In this document: positions 1 to 7,937 of the stretch, one piece after another
Numbering within the stretch: the stretch's first letter is position 1
Layout of the letters: every line of letters begins with the position of its first letter
Source: Bacteroidota bacterium
GTDB lineage: Bacteria > Bacteroidota > Bacteroidia > AKYH767-A > 2013-40CM-41-45
Reading direction: 5' to 3'
NCBI GenBank assembly: GCA_043753795.1
Contig: JAYUWA010000534.1
Span: forward strand, 1-30,796
Length of the DNA stretch: 30,796 nt
The notes under the pieces: generated by a model
The model's database searches: none
What the model was told of the DNA's origin: nothing
The model's input: the letters and a program-made list of their open reading frames with translations, nothing else
Position numbers and translations under genes: made by a program

Positions 1-29
1 CCTGAGTTAATGTATTCTTTAATATCCAT
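1..29 (-). CDS. Probable anti-sigma factor, N-terminal fragment only (runs off the window edge)
   Basis: ATG at 29-27 overlaps the sigma-factor stop codon (TAATG) and reads MDIKEYINSG... to the window edge. This resembles the usual N-terminus of Bacteroidota anti-sigma factors encoded after ECF sigmas. Not in the ORF track. Confidence 0.6.
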
Positions 30-577
30 TACTTACTAGGTTCAAAATATTTTCTTAATCGTTGTATTGCAGCTCGAGACCGGGTCTTGACCGTTCCGAG
101 AGGTATGTTTAGTTTTTCCGCAGCTTCTGACTGTGAATACCCTTCAAAGAAGAGCAAATCGATGATCTGTTTATATTCCGGTTCCAATTTCTTCACAATA
201 TCTCGAACTCCAATCAGATCAGGATCATACGAGTTCTTGTGATCTGAAATAGATACGGCATTATCAATAGATTGGTTTTTGTTTTGATTTACAAATTCCT
301 TTGAACGCACCTTATCGATAGAAAGATTCCTGCAAAGATTAACCATCCAGGTAAATAAACGTCCTTTTGCAGAATCATATTGCATGAAATTATTCCAGAT
401 CTTCAGGAAGGCTTCTTGCAAGACATCTTCGGCAATTTCATCTTTCTGGACTATCCTGTGGATGACACCATACAAAGCAGAAGAATAATTGTCATAAAGA
501 ATCTCAATGCCACGCTTGTCACGATCGACAAGTAGCTGTATTAATTCTTCTTCTTCTATTTTGGTTTTTCTTCCCAC
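29..577 (-). CDS. ECF-type RNA polymerase sigma-70 factor (SigK-like)
   Basis: 182 aa. Region 2 (AEDVLQEAFLKIW...FTWMVNLCRNLSID) and region 4.2 HTH (YSQSEAAEKLNIPLGTVKTR). Confidence 0.95.
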   Translation of the reverse strand: MGRKTKIEEEELIQLLVDRDKRGIEILYDNYSSALYGVIHRIVQKDEIAEDVLQEAFLKIWNNFMQYDSAKGRLFTWMVNLCRNLSIDKVRSKEFVNQNKNQSIDNAVSISDHKNSYDPDLIGVRDIVKKLEPEYKQIIDLLFFEGYSQSEAAEKLNIPLGTVKTRSRAAIQRLRKYFEPSK

Positions 578-627
578 AAATAGTATTTTGGTTTAGGCGA
601 TACAAAGAAACAAAAAATAATGAATTC

Positions 628-1422
628 TCATTTCCGGCGAAGAGTAATAATGAAGTGATCCGCCATCCGATCAAACGGAAAAGTGAATCTTACTGCATTT
701 TCAACCTTCTTAAGGAATTTGAATGTGTTAGGTAATCTTTTTGGAAAAAACTCAAAATAAGGCGGTGGGACAAAAGAACAGAGCCCTTCCATTTTTACCT
801 TCGAAAATTCTTCGCCAAAAACCCTATGTATATACATTTGAGAGAAGTAAAATGTTTTAAAAAACTGACCTTCAAGATGACTTTGTGCTCCATCTTTTTT
901 AAATCTCCTGAAAGCAACTTTGAAATTTCCTTTCAATGCAAGTAACATTTCCCATGGACAAACTTTTGGCATTACCACCAGTGTTACAATTCCGCCGCTT
1001 TTTAGATTCTTTTTGATCCCTTCCACGACCGGTTGCAGGTCAGAAATGCAATTTAATCCACCGAAATCAGAGAATACAACATCAAATGGGCCTTCCGGAA
1101 ATTTTGGCAAATCAGTATAAGAGCATAATTGCGTAGTTATACTTCTTTCAAGCTTTTGTTCCTTGATCTTTATTTTCAATGTGTGAATCATCCCCGGAGC
1201 CACATCCGTCGCCAACGTTTTCATGCCATAGCTTGCAAAAAAAACTGAATCGATTCCGGTACCACAATTCAACTCCAGGATCTTTGCATTCGCAGCAAAA
1301 TGCCGAAGACAATGTTCATGGATCCTTTTGCGCATATATTGCAATATGAGATTCTCTTCTTCGATCTTATCGAACGATGAACTTTGTTTTGTAAATGCTA
1401 CTGCCGGACCTTCCTGAATCAT
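628..1422 (-). CDS. Class I SAM-dependent methyltransferase
   Basis: Motif I variant ILELNCGTGID, post-I acidic ATDVAPGM, motif II FDVVFSDFGGLNC. Start overlaps the upstream stop (ATGA). Confidence 0.9.
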   Translation of the reverse strand: MIQEGPAVAFTKQSSSFDKIEEENLILQYMRKRIHEHCLRHFAANAKILELNCGTGIDSVFFASYGMKTLATDVAPGMIHTLKIKIKEQKLERSITTQLCSYTDLPKFPEGPFDVVFSDFGGLNCISDLQPVVEGIKKNLKSGGIVTLVVMPKVCPWEMLLALKGNFKVAFRRFKKDGAQSHLEGQFFKTFYFSQMYIHRVFGEEFSKVKMEGLCSFVPPPYFEFFPKRLPNTFKFLKKVENAVRFTFPFDRMADHFIITLRRK

Positions 1423-2888
1423 GCGGGTCTGTTCTTGTCCATTACACCAAGTTTATAACCATTGACCAATTTATAAAAAGCATGCAAAGGTAAAAGCACA
1501 CTGGTTCTGACTTTCGACCTGGAAATTGTTGAAGGCGATATCAACATTTGCGAAAGTGTTTCTTTTCCTTGTTGCATCCTGAACATCCGGTGTACATAAC
1601 GCTGAAGAACTTTGTAATAATTTCGCGGCAGATCTTTATTGAACATCAATGCAAGTTCATCGGAATCTTCCCAGTTTGATTTTTCACCAAGTTGGTCTTT
1701 AACTCTTTCGTAAAAAACTGTTCCCGGAAGTGGATATGAAACGGAGATTCCGATATCGTCAGGTTTTAAGTCAGATAGCATCTTCAAGGTTAACTTCACA
1801 TCATTTTTATTTTCACCGGGATAACCAAACTGTAAAAAAAATGCTGCCTTCACTCCTGCTTTCCTTAGGCCAATTGATGCATCACGGATCTGTTTAACTG
1901 TAATTCCTTTATCCATTGCATCGAGAATTTTTTGTGAACCGCTTTCTGCACCCATCCATACAATTTCACATCCTGCTCGCGCAAGATCAGAAATAGCATT
2001 GTCGTTTGTCAGCAGATCAGCGCGTGACTGGATTTTGAATTTGAATTTCAGTTGAGATGCTTCTATAAGGTCAGCAAATTCTTTTACCCATCCCGGCTTT
2101 AATCCAAAAATGTCGTCAGTCATCCAGAAATGACTCGCACCAAATGTCGACTGCAAAAATTTTATTTGTTCAACAATACGCAATGGACTGTGAACATTGT
2201 ACCTGTTTCCATAAATTGGTTTTGCACACCAATTACAATGGAAAGGGCAACCTCTTGTTGTACTTAAGTTAAGCGAAAAATATCCGGTACTTGCAATCCA
2301 TCGATCTTTGTACTCACTCATATTTATCAGATCCCATGCAGGAGTTGGAAGATCATCGATCGATTTCAAAACATTTCGCTTCGGTGATTTGAATAAACCT
2401 GTTGGAGTCATATAAATTAACCCCGCAATAAAATCCGGTTGTTGATCTGATACAGAAAGATGATCGGCTAATTCACCCAAAGCTTCTTCTCCTTCTCCGT
2501 ATATTATATAATCAGCCCCGGCAGATAAATATTTTTCAGGGTGATCTGTTGAATCACTGCTATTAACGATAACTTTAATATTACGGGCTTTAGCAAAATG
2601 GATCATTTGAAATGCAGCCTCACGCATATTAGTGAGACACATTTTCGTCAGGTAATTAAATCCATCATCATAGATAACAAGATAATCAGGTTTATCTTTT
2701 GCTAAAAAAGGAATGATCTCTTCAGCAGAATGCGCAAACATTGAATCGAAAAGTGAAATTGAATAGTTTTTACTTTTAAGAAAAGCAGCGGCAGAAATTG
2801 TTCCTAGCGGAGGATAGGGTTGTTGCATTTTCCATTGTTTCGGATCGAAACGAAGGAAGTAGCTATGCGCAAATAGAATTTTTTTCAT
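1419..2888 (-). CDS. B12-binding domain radical SAM protein (class B-like)
   Basis: N-terminal cobalamin-binding-like domain (PYPPLGT...GEGEEAL), CxxxCxxC in TRGCPFHCNWC, FWMTDDIF, GAESGSQKILDAMDKG, GYPGE. Confidence 0.92.
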   Translation of the reverse strand: MKKILFAHSYFLRFDPKQWKMQQPYPPLGTISAAAFLKSKNYSISLFDSMFAHSAEEIIPFLAKDKPDYLVIYDDGFNYLTKMCLTNMREAAFQMIHFAKARNIKVIVNSSDSTDHPEKYLSAGADYIIYGEGEEALGELADHLSVSDQQPDFIAGLIYMTPTGLFKSPKRNVLKSIDDLPTPAWDLINMSEYKDRWIASTGYFSLNLSTTRGCPFHCNWCAKPIYGNRYNVHSPLRIVEQIKFLQSTFGASHFWMTDDIFGLKPGWVKEFADLIEASQLKFKFKIQSRADLLTNDNAISDLARAGCEIVWMGAESGSQKILDAMDKGITVKQIRDASIGLRKAGVKAAFFLQFGYPGENKNDVKLTLKMLSDLKPDDIGISVSYPLPGTVFYERVKDQLGEKSNWEDSDELALMFNKDLPRNYYKVLQRYVHRMFRMQQGKETLSQMLISPSTISRSKVRTSVLLPLHAFYKLVNGYKLGVMDKNRPA

Positions 2889-3846
2889 GTCTCAAAACAA
2901 TATCGTGCTGTTTTTCAAAATTGGCGAATTTAATGTCAAGTTCCCGGAGAATTTTCTCCTGAAACCCATTGGGATGATGTTTGGAGACATTCTTTTTTGT
3001 ACGCATCCGCAGATCAAATGTTGATGCATCAAAATCCTTGAATTTTTTCTTCCAGTGTTTTAGTGTGAATTTGAAAAAATAGTTATCAATAGCCTCACCT
3101 AAAGATCCGGAAAATATTTTTTCGAGAAATGATTTTATCCGAGGAAATTTTTCATCGACTAAATAGTATTCATTCCTCAGAGGGAAGTTTGGATAAAATG
3201 TTTTACTCCATATATTTTCATTCATGAAATTCAAATATTCAGAATAGTTGTATACAGGAATGAGATAACTAACTTCTGTAGCAGTAAAAATATTTCTATC
3301 AGGAATGGAAAGCTGATCTTCAGAAACAAAGTAATTCACACAAAAGTTCTTTTTTGAGTTTAACAAAAAGAGTTTTTTGTATAAAACTAAAAATGTTCTT
3401 GTCAACCAAAGTCTGTTCCGGGAAGTGATAATAAAATAGTCGATATCCGAATTTTCGTCCATAAAATTTTTTGACAGTGAACCACTGATCGTCACAGCTT
3501 TTACAAATGGGAACGAAGCGATCAGGCTGCTGAACTTTTTCATCCGGTCAACCATCTTCTTTGCAAACTTTTCACCGGCAATTCGTCTATGCATATTGAA
3601 TACAGAAGGGAAAACTGAATAATATCCTTCGTGAAAATAAATTTTCTGTTCATCGACTAATTCCAAAAGTACTTCCGGCAATTCATTTTCATCCTTCAAC
3701 TCTATTTGAATAAGATCATTGATCTCATTTATTGAAAGTGGATGATTGAAGATGTCAAAATAAAGAAGCACGCGAATCACTGCTGCTGACATTTCAACAT
3801 TTTGCTTAGTACAATTCCGATACGAACTTGTGGGAGAGTAATTCAT
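2863..3846 (-). CDS. Nucleotidyltransferase-domain protein (Pol-beta superfamily) with a possible N-terminal winged helix
   Basis: GS-x(9)-DxD signature: VTISGSLSKNFMDENSDIDYFIIT. N-terminus FNHPLSINEI...LLELVDEQKIYFHEGYY is wHTH-like. Confidence 0.7.
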   Translation of the reverse strand: MNYSPTSSYRNCTKQNVEMSAAVIRVLLYFDIFNHPLSINEINDLIQIELKDENELPEVLLELVDEQKIYFHEGYYSVFPSVFNMHRRIAGEKFAKKMVDRMKKFSSLIASFPFVKAVTISGSLSKNFMDENSDIDYFIITSRNRLWLTRTFLVLYKKLFLLNSKKNFCVNYFVSEDQLSIPDRNIFTATEVSYLIPVYNYSEYLNFMNENIWSKTFYPNFPLRNEYYLVDEKFPRIKSFLEKIFSGSLGEAIDNYFFKFTLKHWKKKFKDFDASTFDLRMRTKKNVSKHHPNGFQEKILRELDIKFANFEKQHDIVLRHEKNSICA

Positions 3847-3882
3847 CTGGGAGAAAGGAAGTTTTAAAGATAGTAATTTTCC

Positions 3883-4641
3883 CTAAACTGTAATTTTAAA
3901 AATGTATAGGTTTTCAGTAATAAATTGTTTGACGGAAACTGCCTTTATCGCAAGCGAATTTTCTTTAGCTAATCCGAATATTTTAGTGAAATTACAATCT
4001 TCAGATAAAACCATATACATTTCTGAAGAAGCATCCATATGCGCTTTGCATTGTACAAACAATTTTTTAAAATATTCGAAATCCTTTCCTGCATACCATG
4101 CATGATCGGAAGGTTTTCTTGCAATACCCGGATAAAAAGGGGGGTTAACAATGAGAATATCAAAAATTCCATTTGTTACATTATCAAAAAGATCCGATTC
4201 AAACACTTCAACACTTCCTGAATTCTCATTTATTCTTTCTGAATTCAGAGAAACATTCAGTTTTGTATTTTCCATGGCTAATGGACAAATATCAATAGCT
4301 GTAACATTGGCACCTTCTTTTGCGGCTACTATTGAGATAAGACCTGAGCCCGAACCTATTTCTATTACTTTCTTTTTAGAAAAATTCATGAATTCCAAAA
4401 ATTCAAGCATAAAGCTTGTGCTGCTGAAGAATCGTGGATGAAAAACTCCGGGTTTTATCTTCAAAGCTATATCCTGATATTTGTAATTGGATTCTTTCGA
4501 TGTATACCACTCAACAAACGGCTTATAAATAAAATTCAAAATCCTTTTTTCAAGAAATCGCACCGGTCTCTTAACTGCCTTCCGATTAAGAATCTGTTCC
4601 ATTGTTTTTACTTCTTTCATTTGAATAACATAATATTTCAA
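3883..4641 (-). CDS. HemK/PrmC-related class I methyltransferase (NPPF motif)
   Basis: GVFHP, VIEIGSGSGLIS, TAIDI, SDLF, DILIVNPPFY. TTG start abuts the upstream stop; alternative ATG at 4620. Confidence 0.85.
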   Translation of the reverse strand: MKYYVIQMKEVKTMEQILNRKAVKRPVRFLEKRILNFIYKPFVEWYTSKESNYKYQDIALKIKPGVFHPRFFSSTSFMLEFLEFMNFSKKKVIEIGSGSGLISIVAAKEGANVTAIDICPLAMENTKLNVSLNSERINENSGSVEVFESDLFDNVTNGIFDILIVNPPFYPGIARKPSDHAWYAGKDFEYFKKLFVQCKAHMDASSEMYMVLSEDCNFTKIFGLAKENSLAIKAVSVKQFITENLYIFKITV

Positions 4642-6147
4642 TTAAAAGCCCTCAATTTCTGGTTGCCGATACTTCCATAATTTTTGAATTGCCTTTATCT
4701 CATAAGGGAACGAATACACTTTATTCTTATATCTGAATGCAGAGATCTTTTTCAGGATTTTAATCTTAGTATCATTTAATCTGATGTCAGAATAAGTCGG
4801 AAAATAACCATTCAAAACTGTTTCAAAATTTCGGATATAATCAATCATTTCAGCTGTCAACCAAGGTGTCAAAGGATTCTTACGGAGGTCGAACTTTTCC
4901 CATGCCGATGAGATCCAATCTTCCAGTTTCTCCGGATAATGAAATCCGGATGCCTGCACTTTTTCATACAACTCACTTCCTTCAACAGGCACAGGTGAAT
5001 ACACATAAATGATAATTTCCGTATCCGGATTTATCTCTTTGATCTCTCTGATAAACTCTACATCTCTCCTGATCTGTTTCCAAGATTCTTCTTCCGTTTC
5101 ACCGGGCATCCCCAGCACAAAAGAATATTCAGGAATAATATCGAACTTTTTCATTCGAGCAGCAAAAGAACGGATTTGAGCAGCACTTTGTGTTCCGCCT
5201 TTGTCCATCCGTTTCAAGATATCATCATTGCCTGTTTCTGCTCCGAAGAAGATCATCTTGCAACCTGACTCGCGCATGATTGCAAGTGACTCATCAGAAT
5301 ATTTATTGATGGTATCGATACGGCCTTCACCCCACCAGATCATGTTTTCTTTTTTGATGAGGTTTGAAAACTCTACTGTTCTTTTTTCAGAAACAAAAAA
5401 ATTGTTGTCGTGAAATTCAATAGCATTTCCACCAAAAGTATTTTTAAGATAGAGAATGTCTTTATAAATTTTCTCTGCTGATTTTCCTTTCCAACGTGCA
5501 TTATAAATTGGAACAACAGCACAGAAACTACACGTAAATGGACAACCAAAACTGGAATGATATGCAATTGTTTTTGTCCCCAGACAAGTCTTTCCAAGAT
5601 ACCTGCGCATATCATAAAATTCATTGAGTTGAGCATATGGAAATGAAGGCAAAAGATCCTGATCGTAGATCTCATCTTTTTTTGTTGTGATTATCTCTCC
5701 GCTTTCATTCTTAAAGATCAGATTCGGCAAAGAAGAAAAATTTCGTGTTCCTGTTTCAAGTTCTTTCAGTAATGCAGGAAAAACTTTTTCACCGGGACCA
5801 TTCACAACAAAGTCGACAAAACCGGAATTCAAAACCACTTTGGAGTGGTTAGAAGGAAAATATCCACCCCAGATGATTCTGACTTTTGGAAAAGACTCTC
5901 TGACTTTTTTAGAAAAAGGAATTGCTTGCTTCAGTTGTGGTCCGGGCATGACGGTTGATGCAAATACAAAGAACTCCCCTGAATCCAGGTACTTTTCAAT
6001 TTTAGTCCAGGGATCAACTTCCAGATTTCCATCTACTATTACCCATTCATAAAGTCCATTCAAAGTAGCAGCCACCGACAAAATCGAATTCGGGATCCTA
6101 GGTTTTGTATTTGCAGCTCTGGGGTTGAATAAAAGGACTTTTTTCAC
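4642..6147 (-). CDS. B12-binding domain radical SAM protein (class B-like)
   Basis: LLFNPR, IWGGYFPS, VVNGPGE, CxxxCxxC in SFGCPFTCSFC, FHDNNF, GAETGNDDILKRMDKG, GMPGET. GTG start. Confidence 0.92.
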   Translation of the reverse strand: MKKVLLFNPRAANTKPRIPNSILSVAATLNGLYEWVIVDGNLEVDPWTKIEKYLDSGEFFVFASTVMPGPQLKQAIPFSKKVRESFPKVRIIWGGYFPSNHSKVVLNSGFVDFVVNGPGEKVFPALLKELETGTRNFSSLPNLIFKNESGEIITTKKDEIYDQDLLPSFPYAQLNEFYDMRRYLGKTCLGTKTIAYHSSFGCPFTCSFCAVVPIYNARWKGKSAEKIYKDILYLKNTFGGNAIEFHDNNFFVSEKRTVEFSNLIKKENMIWWGEGRIDTINKYSDESLAIMRESGCKMIFFGAETGNDDILKRMDKGGTQSAAQIRSFAARMKKFDIIPEYSFVLGMPGETEEESWKQIRRDVEFIREIKEINPDTEIIIYVYSPVPVEGSELYEKVQASGFHYPEKLEDWISSAWEKFDLRKNPLTPWLTAEMIDYIRNFETVLNGYFPTYSDIRLNDTKIKILKKISAFRYKNKVYSFPYEIKAIQKLWKYRQPEIEGF

Positions 6148-6286
6148 GAGTGGAAGATATTGGTTTTAGGGCAATATAATGTAGTTTTTCATCACGAAAT
6201 AAGTAGACTTGGAGTAGACATTCTGGCAATTCAATAATTTTAAACACATCTTTAATTGCTTTATCCTTTTATTTCCTGCAGTCAAG

Positions 6287-6392
6287 ATCTGCGATCTTAT
6301 CTGCGAATTTATCTGCGCAATCTGCGGGAGAAAAACACACTGTAATTTCTCCCGCAGATTGCGCAGATAAATACGCAGATAAATACGCAGAT
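6287..6392. repeat. 106-bp imperfect palindrome made of mirrored ATCTGCG/CGCAGAT units
   Basis: ATCTGCG at 6287, 6299, 6311, 6320 and CGCAGAT at 6353, 6362, 6374, 6386. Perfect 27-bp inner arms 6307-6333 and 6346-6372 around a 12-nt loop. Confidence 0.95.
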
Positions 6393-6396
6393 TTGG

Positions 6397-6415
6397 AGCT
6401 ACATTAATTGTAGCT
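6397..6415. other. Small hairpin AGCTACA-TTAAT-TGTAGCT downstream of the GT87 gene
   Basis: Perfect 7-bp stem with no clear U-tract, so not called as a terminator. Confidence 0.4.
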
Positions 6416-6462
6416 TGCTTGTCCTTGTATCAAAAACTTATTGAATCTTAATGTTAAAATTT

Positions 6463-7704
6463 TTATGCATCACTCCTTGCATATTTCACTACAAAAATTG
6501 CAGTCATCACAAAAAACAAATTCAACAAAATCAATCTGTAAAACTGAAATGGCAGAAATGAAATCTTCGAATTGACAAAATCAAAAACAATCCCACTGAA
6601 ACCAAATACAAAAAGCGAACAAATAAGAAACGCTATGAAACGCTCATTCTCTTTTTGCAATCCGATCAAAAGTGCAACCGGAAATAATAGAAGCAACAAA
6701 TGATAACTGGCAGATGCAGGTGAAAATGCCAGTGCGCATAATGAAAGGAAAACAACTGAGTAAGCAGACAGGTCAGGGTGATTGTTTAATCTGTGCAAAG
6801 TATAAATCAGCGTTGAAATCAATCCTACGAAAACGATTGCCTTTAGGATTATCACACCATTTGGCCAATCAAATACAGGATTTGGATTAATGATCGAATC
6901 ATTCGAAAACAAATTCAACGCAAGTGAATTCCACGATTGAAATGCAAATGCATACGGATTCTGTCCTTCGAGCTTACCATTCAAATGATCAAACAAAACT
7001 GAATTTATAAAATCATTACAGGGCTTTGTGCCGATAATGATAATTGAAAGTAAAGCAATGCCGATCAAGGAAATTAAGGTTGCGACAATTGCTTTGAAAT
7101 TTTTTCTGATCAGGAATGCCGGTAATGTTACTACCGGAAAATATTTTATGGCTATACCGGAAGCAAGTAAAAATCCTGACCAACCGGATCTTTTTTCGGC
7201 CTGCATCCATGCAATCATCCACATTAAAAGCACCAAAAGGTAAACTTGTCCAAGGTAGAAGTTGTTGTATAAAGCAATACCAGATAACAAAACAACAGAT
7301 GCACTTTGCTGCAAATTGAGTTTGGAGATCTTCGAGAAAAGAACAATCACTCCATACAATAAAAGGATATTGATGCATGTCCAGATCCTCTTAGCAGTAA
7401 TTGGCGGAAATCCGGCAACCGGCAACATAACAAATACTGTCGGCGGTGGAAACGGAGCAAACTTCCCTTCCTGATCTATTCCATAGCTGTGAATCAGATC
7501 ATTAAAGGTAGTATTGGAATAGATGCCTGATAAATCCTTTCCTTCGAGTAACAATTTGGATGAAACATAGTAATTAGGGAAATCACTGCGGACATCAGTC
7601 ATTGCCGGATAGATACCTTTCCAAATTTGAATTAAAACCAACATTAACAAGAAAATTCTGCCCGAAACGGAATTCGAGAAAAGCAGATTTTTGAACCACA
7701 TCAT
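6463..7704 (-). CDS. GT87/DUF2029-like membrane glycosyltransferase (GT-C fold)
   Basis: SDFPNYY near the N-terminus, FAPFPPPT, NNFYLGQVYLLVL, GIAIKYFP, and many hydrophobic segments. Confidence 0.85.
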   Translation of the reverse strand: MMWFKNLLFSNSVSGRIFLLMLVLIQIWKGIYPAMTDVRSDFPNYYVSSKLLLEGKDLSGIYSNTTFNDLIHSYGIDQEGKFAPFPPPTVFVMLPVAGFPPITAKRIWTCINILLLYGVIVLFSKISKLNLQQSASVVLLSGIALYNNFYLGQVYLLVLLMWMIAWMQAEKRSGWSGFLLASGIAIKYFPVVTLPAFLIRKNFKAIVATLISLIGIALLSIIIIGTKPCNDFINSVLFDHLNGKLEGQNPYAFAFQSWNSLALNLFSNDSIINPNPVFDWPNGVIILKAIVFVGLISTLIYTLHRLNNHPDLSAYSVVFLSLCALAFSPASASYHLLLLLFPVALLIGLQKENERFIAFLICSLFVFGFSGIVFDFVNSKISFLPFQFYRLILLNLFFVMTAIFVVKYARSDA

Positions 7705-7772: not shown

Positions 7773-7937
7773 AAGGTCAAAGGTCAAAGGTCAAAGGTCA
7801 AAGGTCAAAGGTCAAAGGTCAAAGGTCAAAGGTCAAAGATCAAAGATCAAAGGTCATAGATCATAGATCAATGGTCAATGCATAAAGTTTAAGCCAAGTC
7901 AAACCGCAAATAACCTTTTACCCTTGACCCTTGACCT
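7773..7937. repeat. Heptamer tandem array (AAGGTCA)n with an inverted partner arm
   Basis: 9 perfect AAGGTCA copies at 7773-7835 plus 6 mostly variant units to 7877. Reverse-oriented arm TAACCTT-TTACCCT-TGACCCT-TGACCT at 7911-7937. Confidence 0.97.

Follow-up and report, generated by a model that had tools for sequence, protein, structure and literature searches.

Extracytoplasmic glycosylation in three components is represented by ArnC/ArnEF/ArnT and GtrABC. The components are a lipid-linked donor synthase, a flippase, and a glycosyltransferase of the GT-C fold, accompanied by auxiliary enzymes that modify the sugar while it is lipid-linked, as in the pentofuranose system of the Citrobacter youngae O-antigen (PMC11127046). 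Radical S-adenosylmethionine (SAM) enzymes with a vitamin B12 (cobalamin) domain take part in hopanoid side-chain tailoring by HpnI/HpnK/HpnJ and include the archaeal calditol synthase Cds; HpnJ and Cds are proposed to contract the ring of a lipid-bound sugar (PMC13459092). Class B radical SAM methyltransferases are known in Fom3, which acts on cytidylyl-2-hydroxyethylphosphonate, and in GenK and GenD1, which act on aminoglycoside sugars (in part, PMC12931638). Here we describe a gene cluster in a stretch of 30,796 nucleotides (nt) of a Bacteroidota genome (GCA_043753795.1, contig JAYUWA010000534.1, positions 1-30,796; genome completeness 94.9%), hereafter the window. The cluster consists of two B12-type radical SAM enzymes (rSAM_A and rSAM_B), two methyltransferases (MT_A and MT_B), a nucleotidyltransferase (NTase), and a GT87 glycosyltransferase. 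It is widespread and conserved in Bacteroidota and uncharacterised, and an orphan NTase-rSAM_B pair stands at its centre. We hold, with a probability of about one half, that it is a conserved envelope-glycan tailoring system which acts on a polyprenyl-phosphate-linked sugar, and that the copy in this genome is a reduced one.

Like the three-component systems, the cluster is headed by a GT-C enzyme, to which relatives add a flippase of the MOP/Wzx type followed by cytoplasmic tailoring enzymes. Of the three components, the window encodes the GT-C enzyme; the flippase occurs in relatives and was not found in this genome with the relatives' protein as query, and no recognisable donor synthase, of the GT2 or UbiA type, is encoded in the cluster. 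The auxiliary enzymes also differ, being B12 radical SAM enzymes, methyltransferases, and a winged-helix NTase and not epimerases or deformylases, and the GT-C enzyme is a GT87 and not a GT83 or GT136. With HpnI/HpnK/HpnJ and Cds the cluster shares a B12 radical SAM enzyme proposed to act on a lipid-linked sugar beside a glycosyltransferase, and each rSAM has HpnJ among its best partial matches; however, no hopanoid genes are present, the NTase and the methyltransferases are without counterpart, and ring contraction would be one possibility among others. The resemblance to Fom3 and GenK/GenD1 lies in a nucleotidyltransferase coupled to a B12 radical SAM enzyme, a sugar-like context, and SAM methyltransferases in the cluster. 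The NTase has a Pol-beta fold and not a GlmU or IspD type, and no phosphoenolpyruvate (PEP) mutase was found in the genome; the rSAMs reach no family cut-off, and the context is that of an envelope glycan and not of an antibiotic. An earlier note on the same DNA could not match the gene set to a named pathway. Our library and literature searches agree with it: they returned no such pathway, and no characterisation of this gene set was found in the literature.

The occurrence of the NTase and rSAM_B was determined in 401 evenly sampled Bacteroidota genomes from 180 genera. The NTase was present in 48 genomes (about 12%) and 40 genera, and an rSAM_B orthologue (E ≤ 1e-90; identity 42-57%) in 46 genomes. 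Both were found together in 45 genomes; three had the NTase alone, two of them with weak matches, and one had rSAM_B alone. rSAM_B follows directly after the NTase in 76 of 91 loci, the two genes overlap in 50, and the median gap is -4 nt. rSAM_B is the obligate partner of the NTase. A pattern scan of the GTDB species representatives with a 12-sequence NTase alignment gave at least 500 loci. Nearly all of these carried Bacteroidota-type labels, among them Acidiluteibacter ferrifornacis S-15 (L128), Dokdonia, Crocinitomix, Lewinella, Chitinophagales, Candidatus Pollutiaquabacter, and Candidatus Kapaibacterium; the few names from other phyla are probably mis-binned.

Gene content was counted in the 59 loci that had at least 8 kb on both sides (well-flanked loci). 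rSAM_B was encoded in 58 of them, MT_B in 48, rSAM_A in 33, and MT_A in 29, as was a third radical SAM subfamily that is ~30-35% identical to rSAM_B. A GT87-like protein and one GT4 family were found in 15 loci each; a third class I methyltransferase (MT_C), a radical SAM enzyme with a SPASM domain, and a Wzx-like membrane protein in 12 each; and Bac_transf in six. All five core genes (rSAM_A, MT_A, NTase, rSAM_B, and MT_B) occurred together in 20 loci and all six genes in 10. These locus and phyletic counts indicate that the invariant unit is the NTase with rSAM_B, usually accompanied by MT_B; the six-gene set is one of its frequent extensions. Since the grouping recurs across many genera, it is not due to chance. 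Co-occurrence across taxa, the test chosen beforehand, was thus borne out: the NTase and rSAM_B share a phyletic profile, and MT_B, rSAM_A, and MT_A are frequent partners. The six genes as a set are not the invariant core; GT87 accompanies the core in 15 of the 59 loci and here lies behind a hairpin.

The neighbours that recur around these loci are enzymes of glycan assembly. They comprise GT4, GT2, and GT9 glycosyltransferases, Wzy_C proteins with and without TPR repeats, Wzz, ABC exporters, polytopic proteins resembling EpsG and PMT_2, GT-C enzymes of the GT22 and GT87 families, and phosphoglycosyl transferases of the WbaP/PglC type. At least one gene of a glycan-assembly set (GT4, GT87-like, Wzx-like flippase, Wzy_C, EpsG/PMT_2-like, GT2, GT9, Bac_transf, and ABC exporter) was within 10 kb in 45 of the 59 loci, a lower bound that has no random-window baseline.

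The NTase (2863-3846, minus strand; 327 aa) is predicted to have three domains, a winged helix, a Pol-beta-type nucleotidyltransferase core, and a helical C-terminal domain. The Pfam match to NTP_transf_2 scored 22.2 bits, just above the cut-off, and there was no NCBIfam match. In an alignment of 38 sequences, G122, D134, D136, C169, N171, E191, N211, and W213 are invariant, and the catalytic signature, GS...DxD plus E191, is conserved in the relatives. An AlphaFold model built from the alignment had a mean predicted local distance difference test score (pLDDT) of 92 and a predicted template modelling score (pTM) of 0.89, against a pLDDT of 34 for the single-sequence prediction. In this model the winged helix (residues 12-80) resembles many winged helices with Z ~9, and the core with the helical part (residues 93-299) has ANT(4') as its best solved likeness (Z 8.4). 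No solved structure matched the whole protein: a Foldseek search of the PDB gave none at E ≤ 1e-3 (best E > 0.01), and a search of the Swiss-Prot part of the AlphaFold database gave domain-level matches only, to GlnD and MNT. Predicted structures with the same architecture come from Bacteroidota, Chloroflexota, and candidate-phyla-radiation clusters, and the family comprises 2735 clusters of 50% identity at E ≤ 1e-10. By these sequence and model comparisons the NTase is a new, uncharacterised family. A toxin-antitoxin system of the MNT-HEPN type VII was considered and rejected: with three domains and 327 aa the NTase is longer than a minimal one (~100-150 aa), it is not flanked by a HEPN gene, and its profile matched MNT chains only at E 0.19-0.7.

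The partners to which NTase domains are fused were Bac_transf (P0133), a methyltransferase (P0134), and GT4 (P0136), and candidate-phyla-radiation bacteria have a cluster of fusions with a CTP_transf_like domain, one of which is named HldE. Because of these fusion partners, we place the NTase close to the membrane, where the assembly of lipid-linked glycans begins. Its candidate reactions would be the transfer of a nucleoside monophosphate (NMP) to a sugar or phosphate, or a LicD-like transfer of a phospho-alcohol from a nucleoside diphosphate (NDP)-alcohol; the CTP_transf_like fusion is an indirect hint of such LicD-like (CDP-alcohol) chemistry. A predicted complex of rSAM_B with the NTase scored 0.00, which speaks neither way.

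Enzymes of the ANT(4'), LinB, and AadA type nucleotidylylate sugar hydroxyls. ANT(4')/KNTase, LinB, and AadA share with the NTase the layout of a Pol-beta core and a helical domain, but the NTase has an additional N-terminal winged helix and invariant motifs of its own, FCxNY and SKHHPxGFQ; the sequences are not significantly similar, and the genomic role is different. The product might be a secreted small molecule, such as a modified pseudo-oligosaccharide or an aminoglycoside- or nucleoside-like compound, with the NTase acting in its synthesis or giving ANT-type self-resistance. Besides the likeness to ANT(4') and the Foldseek matches to LinB and AadA, such a product would fit AprD4, of apramycin biosynthesis, being among the closest solved relatives of both rSAM cores, a nucleoside transporter at one locus (L109), and the association of B12 radical SAM enzymes with methyltransferases that is typical of antibiotic clusters (PMC12931638). 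We nevertheless regard a small molecule as quite unlikely. Structurally, the likeness is confined to the level of domains (Foldseek E > 0.01 against the PDB), and genes that would form a scaffold, such as those for a cyclitol synthase, an aminotransferase, or a dehydrogenase, are not conserved. Antibiotic clusters are sporadic, whereas this module occurs in about 12% of the sampled Bacteroidota with a synteny that looks vertical, and its partners are proteins of envelope assembly (Wzx-like, Wzy_C, GT-C, and Bac_transf).

The two radical SAM enzymes, rSAM_A (4642-6147, minus strand; 501 aa, GTG start) and rSAM_B (1419-2888, minus strand; 489 aa), matched Pfam Radical_SAM with 54-69 bits and aligned over nearly their full length to the B12 radical SAM families of NCBIfam. 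The B12-binding domain (PF02310) scored 32.1 bits in rSAM_A, equal to the cut-off of 32.1, and 29.4 bits in rSAM_B, below it. The cysteine triad C202-x3-C206-x2-C209 of rSAM_A were kept in 46 of 46 orthologues, C214-x3-C218-x2-C221 of rSAM_B in 90 of 90, and the CX3CX2C motif in 44 of 44 members of the third subfamily. Both window enzymes are thus predicted to have the class B architecture, with a CX3CX2C core after an N-terminal Rossmann-type cobalamin-binding domain. Genes of the third B12 radical SAM subfamily follow MT_B at L071:13332-14780, L119:13137-14522, and L069:13190-14599. In other loci rSAM_A is altered: at L003:4040-4228 it is reduced to its C-terminal 63 residues, next to GT87, and at L008:1516-3034 it is split into two open reading frames (ORFs), being intact in the near-identical L007. 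Compared with the core of NTase and rSAM_B, rSAM_A and MT_A look dispensable.

No curated NCBIfam cut-off was reached by either enzyme (best 115-128 bits against 360-750), which places both outside every curated NCBIfam family. rSAM_B and rSAM_A scored 128 and 116 bits for BchE (cut-off 481), 106 and 115 for HpnJ (cut-off 577.6), and 114 and 55 for TIGR04072, a lipid-biosynthesis B12 radical SAM family (cut-off 360). P-methylases of the PhpK and Sden_1168 types scored 95-98 bits (PhpK best, 98 against a cut-off of 600), HpnR 66 bits (cut-off 650), and, for both enzymes, ApyD 93-98 and rSAM_ocin_1 76-81 bits. The nearest solved chains of the two cores were the unnamed radical SAM protein 9ccb and AprD4. 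Radical SAM enzymes with a B12 domain include the non-methylases BchE, HpnJ, ThnL, and BzaE, and AprD4 and ArsL are look-alikes that bind no cobalamin (PMC12931638). Since no cut-off was reached and such enzymes include non-methylases, poly-methylation is plausible and not established. The count of four methyl-transfer-type enzymes in the earlier note was therefore overstated, as the non-methylases BchE, HpnJ, and AprD4 are among the best partial likenesses. Of its proposal of a pathway to a multiply methylated glycolipid, lipid, or surface glycan, the assignment to a glycan or glycolipid made through polyprenyl-phosphate carriers agrees with the neighbours and fusions, and the methylation is a plausible part of it. 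Phosphonate chemistry or P-methylation of the PhpK/Sden_1168 type was also considered; PEP mutase (TIGR02320) had no match in the 94.9% complete genome, which makes a phosphonate route unlikely.

The same scores bear on the possibility that the cluster tailors membrane lipids other than glycans. The rSAMs would act on lipid head groups or on alkyl or isoprenoid chains, by methylation, cyclisation, or cross-linking, like HpnP/HpnR or the B12 radical SAM enzymes that modify glycerol dialkyl glycerol tetraethers or are of the ladderane type, and the NTase would make a nucleotide-activated lipid. TIGR04072 is the second-best NCBIfam likeness of rSAM_B, both rSAMs resemble HpnJ, many lipid-modifying radical SAM enzymes carry B12 domains (PMC13459092), and a sigma/anti-sigma pair of the envelope-stress, extracytoplasmic function (ECF) type adjoins the cluster in this lineage. 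We consider this unlikely, as all these scores are far under the curated cut-offs and no gene for fatty-acid, isoprenoid, or glycerolipid synthesis recurs near the core; instead, GT4, flippase, Wzy/EpsG-like, and phosphoglycosyl transferase genes recur, and fusions of the same kind exist.

MT_A (3883-4641, minus strand; 252 aa in its longest ORF) is a HemK/PrmA/MTS-like putative N-methyltransferase, with Pfam matches to MTS (58.5 bits) and PrmA (45.7 bits). All its NCBIfam scores were below the cut-offs, with 104 bits for the PRK14968 type (PRK14968.1-3; cut-off 162) and 59 bits for PrmC (cut-off 199). The enzyme carries the motifs ExGxGxG and N166-P-P-F, and NPP[FY] was kept in 42 of 42 relatives. 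The NPPF motif points to the nitrogen of an amine or amide as the target; MT_A thus appears similar to amino-group N-methyltransferases, with HemK membership scoring below the cut-off. MT_B (628-1422, minus strand; 264 aa) is a class I SAM-dependent methyltransferase by its matches to Methyltransf_25/11/31 of Pfam, and its SAM-binding motif is conserved in the relatives.

An amide N-methyltransferase beside C-methylating rSAMs would also be expected if a peptide or protein were modified, either as in the proteusin pathways of ribosomally synthesized and post-translationally modified peptides (RiPPs) or by protein methylation. The partial likeness of both rSAMs to the RiPP C-methyltransferases ApyD and rSAM_ocin_1, the HemK/PrmA-like MT_A with its NPPF motif, and the SPASM-domain enzyme in 12 of the 59 loci agree with this, but conserved genes for a precursor peptide, a leader peptidase, or a RiPP recognition element were not seen, and the only small ORF of the spacer upstream of rSAM_A is located where the window and its closest relative differ. 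With scores far under the cut-offs and neighbours and fusions that are glycan enzymes, we judge peptide modification decidedly improbable.

The methyltransferases with NPP[FY] commonly act on the amino groups of bases. MT_A might, accordingly, methylate an exocyclic base amine in a module for RNA or DNA modification or defence, in which the winged helix of the NTase would bind nucleic acid. This domain does resemble nucleic-acid-binding winged helices, and the core of the NTase is like MNT and HalB-type nucleotidyltransferases. A PADLOC search, however, gave generic methyltransferase-domain matches only, by which a defence system was rejected; a HEPN partner is missing, the neighbouring genes are glycan-related, and NTases of this family are fused to membrane glycan enzymes. 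A nucleic-acid function is in our judgement very improbable.

The sixth gene encodes GT87 (6463-7704, minus strand; 413 aa), a polytopic membrane glycosyltransferase predicted to have the GT-C fold. Pfam GT87 (PF09594) matched with 106 bits (3e-30; cut-off 25), the relatives have 7-9 transmembrane-like segments, and the loop-1 motif D41-F-x-N-Y-Y was present in 18-20 of 21 relatives, with D41 in 20 of 21. By domain, polytopic topology, and the acidic residue of loop 1, it is assigned to the GT87 family of the GT-C fold. Equivalence to PimE was rejected, as the score was 25 bits against a cut-off of 413. GT87 recurs in one lineage, and all 14 loci of its family have it co-oriented with the core.

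The nearest relatives with complete clusters, L071 and L078, show the order, on one strand, GT87, Wzx-like flippase, MT_C, a small ORF, rSAM_A, MT_A, NTase, rSAM_B, MT_B, the third rSAM, ECF sigma factor, and RskA-like anti-sigma factor. The protein encoded directly after GT87 has 398 aa and 8-9 transmembrane segments and matches flippases of the Wzx/MOP type (Polysacc_synt) in structure, with template modelling scores of 0.82-0.88. This arrangement fits a route in which a polyprenyl-linked sugar is modified, flipped, and then transferred in the periplasm, as in three-component glycosylation with auxiliary tailoring enzymes (PMC11127046). The window is without the flippase, MT_C, the small ORF, and the third rSAM, and it therefore represents a reduced version of the cluster. 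The small ORF between MT_C and rSAM_A (L071:6810-7172 and L078:6303-6707) is conserved, encodes 120-134 aa, and has no family match; its only match was to prokaryotic STING (E 0.04), which is probably noise.

The minus strand of positions 1-7704 of the window carries seven intact ORFs, the six cluster genes and an ECF sigma factor gene. The six same-strand genes of the earlier note were all found intact at these positions, and their family assignments were all reproduced with Pfam and NCBIfam. The junctions it gave were read again from the sequence: the gap of 36 nt between MT_A and the NTase (3847-3882), the overlap of 26 nt between the NTase and rSAM_B (2863-2888), and the ATGA overlap of rSAM_B and MT_B at 1419-1422 are confirmed. 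The abutting of rSAM_A and MT_A holds if MT_A starts at TTG 4641 and not if it starts at ATG 4620 or ATG 4602. The relatives align only from residue 5-11 on, so the true start may be one of the two ATG codons, and the gap between rSAM_A and MT_A would accordingly be 0-39 nt.

GT87 and rSAM_A are separated by 315 nt (6148-6462, minus strand), which contain a 106-nt palindrome followed by ~95 nt of putative leader or promoter. The palindrome (6287-6392) is made of ATCTGCG/CGCAGAT units and forms a near-perfect hairpin when folded as RNA (-80.9 kcal/mol, z -14.7). In the closest relative, L001, whose proteins are 81-95% identical over the six genes, the palindrome motif is kept with different spacing, and the last ~95 nt before the GTG of rSAM_A (window 6148-6245) are almost identical, while the rest of the spacer diverges. 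The conserved part is likely the promoter or leader of a five-gene operon. Because both this part and the palindrome motif are conserved in L001, rSAM_A to MT_B are read as one operon with its own leader or promoter, which possibly reaches into the sigma factor gene. GT87 is probably a separate, neighbouring transcription unit in this genome. The palindrome sits where the relatives have the flippase, MT_C, and the small ORF, and may thus be a terminator, a repeat element, or the scar left by a deletion or insertion.

For the substrate, the order of steps, and the chemistry of a glycan-tailoring pathway, we infer the following scheme. A sugar carried on polyprenyl phosphate would be made at the cytoplasmic face of the membrane, in other lineages by a phosphoglycosyl transferase or GT4 of the cluster and here by an enzyme encoded elsewhere. 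The NTase would add an NMP to the lipid-linked sugar or transfer to it a phospho-alcohol from an NDP-alcohol. rSAM_B would then abstract a hydrogen from the product with a 5'-deoxyadenosyl radical and either C-methylate it through methylcobalamin or rearrange it, and MT_B, MT_A, and rSAM_A would add further O-, N-, or C-methyl groups. The tailored lipid-linked unit would be flipped across the membrane, a step for which the relatives have the dedicated Wzx-like flippase that is missing here, and GT87 would transfer it in the periplasm to a surface glycan, a glycolipid, or a protein. A cobalamin supply for this chemistry was looked for in the genome, as the earlier note had proposed. The only cobalamin riboswitch detected (contig C22:1575-1761, L062) lies upstream of a TonB-dependent receptor, which is consistent with import of B12 rather than its synthesis.

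A different use of the same enzymes is conceivable. OxsB, a B12 radical SAM enzyme, remodels deoxyadenosine phosphates, and HpnH/HpnG/HpnJ remodel a side chain derived from an adenosyl group. The NTase might be the donor-forming enzyme itself, placing an NMP onto polyprenyl phosphate or a lipid-linked sugar; rSAM_B and rSAM_A would remodel or C-methylate the ribose, MT_A would methylate the exocyclic amine of the base, and GT87 would move the unit to the surface. We think this improbable; if it were true, both the lipid-linked donor and the surface decoration would be of a new type.

Several results weigh against envelope-glycan tailoring by this cluster. Within 10 kb, 14 of the 59 loci lack any recognised glycan gene, a count that also has no random-window baseline, no sugar-nucleotide biosynthesis genes are conserved in the neighbourhoods, and the window cluster encodes no cytoplasmic glycosyltransferase. 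With the proteins of the relatives as queries, neither the flippase nor the third rSAM was found in the 94.9% complete genome; the search with the latter returned only the two rSAMs of the window. The strong hairpin separates GT87 from the operon, and the sequencing runs listed for the locus are of DNA from sediment, sludge, and wastewater, with no RNA runs among them. As for the enzymes, the cobalamin binding of the rSAMs is predicted from a borderline domain match, no reaction type can be assigned to either of them, and LicD gave no match in the Pfam scan of the NTase at E ≤ 0.01.

If the glycan reading is correct, about one in eight sampled Bacteroidota genomes (48/401) decorate their envelope with a sugar-derived unit. 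The carriers are mostly environmental, belonging to Chitinophagales, Flavobacteriales, Saprospiraceae, and groups of metagenome-assembled genomes from sludge and sediment. The unit would be built by radical C-methylation or rearrangement together with O- or N-methylation, a chemistry undescribed for surface glycans; the availability of vitamin B12 would be tied to cell-surface structure in abundant environmental bacteria, and the pathway could account for unusual methylated sugars in environmental organic matter. With several cultured carriers, the cluster is a testable entry to two orphan enzyme families, the winged-helix Pol-beta NTase and its class B radical SAM partner.

The gene for the ECF sigma factor (29-577, minus strand; SigK-like, Pfam Sigma70_r2 and r4) lies 50 nt downstream of MT_B on the same strand. 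It was found in 9 of the 59 well-flanked loci; in close relatives it adjoins the cluster and is followed by the RskA-like anti-sigma factor. It is a lineage-specific neighbour outside the core. Another protein of the neighbourhoods, encoded in 10 of the 59 loci (e.g., L119:6591-7754), belongs to a family of 387 aa that has no Pfam match; its predicted fold is similar to that of beta-propeller-like, cytochrome-associated proteins. On the other side of the cluster, at window 7773-7937, the divergent intergenic region between GT87 and an acyl-CoA dehydrogenase gene contains a long tandem array of heptamers of the AAGGTCA type.

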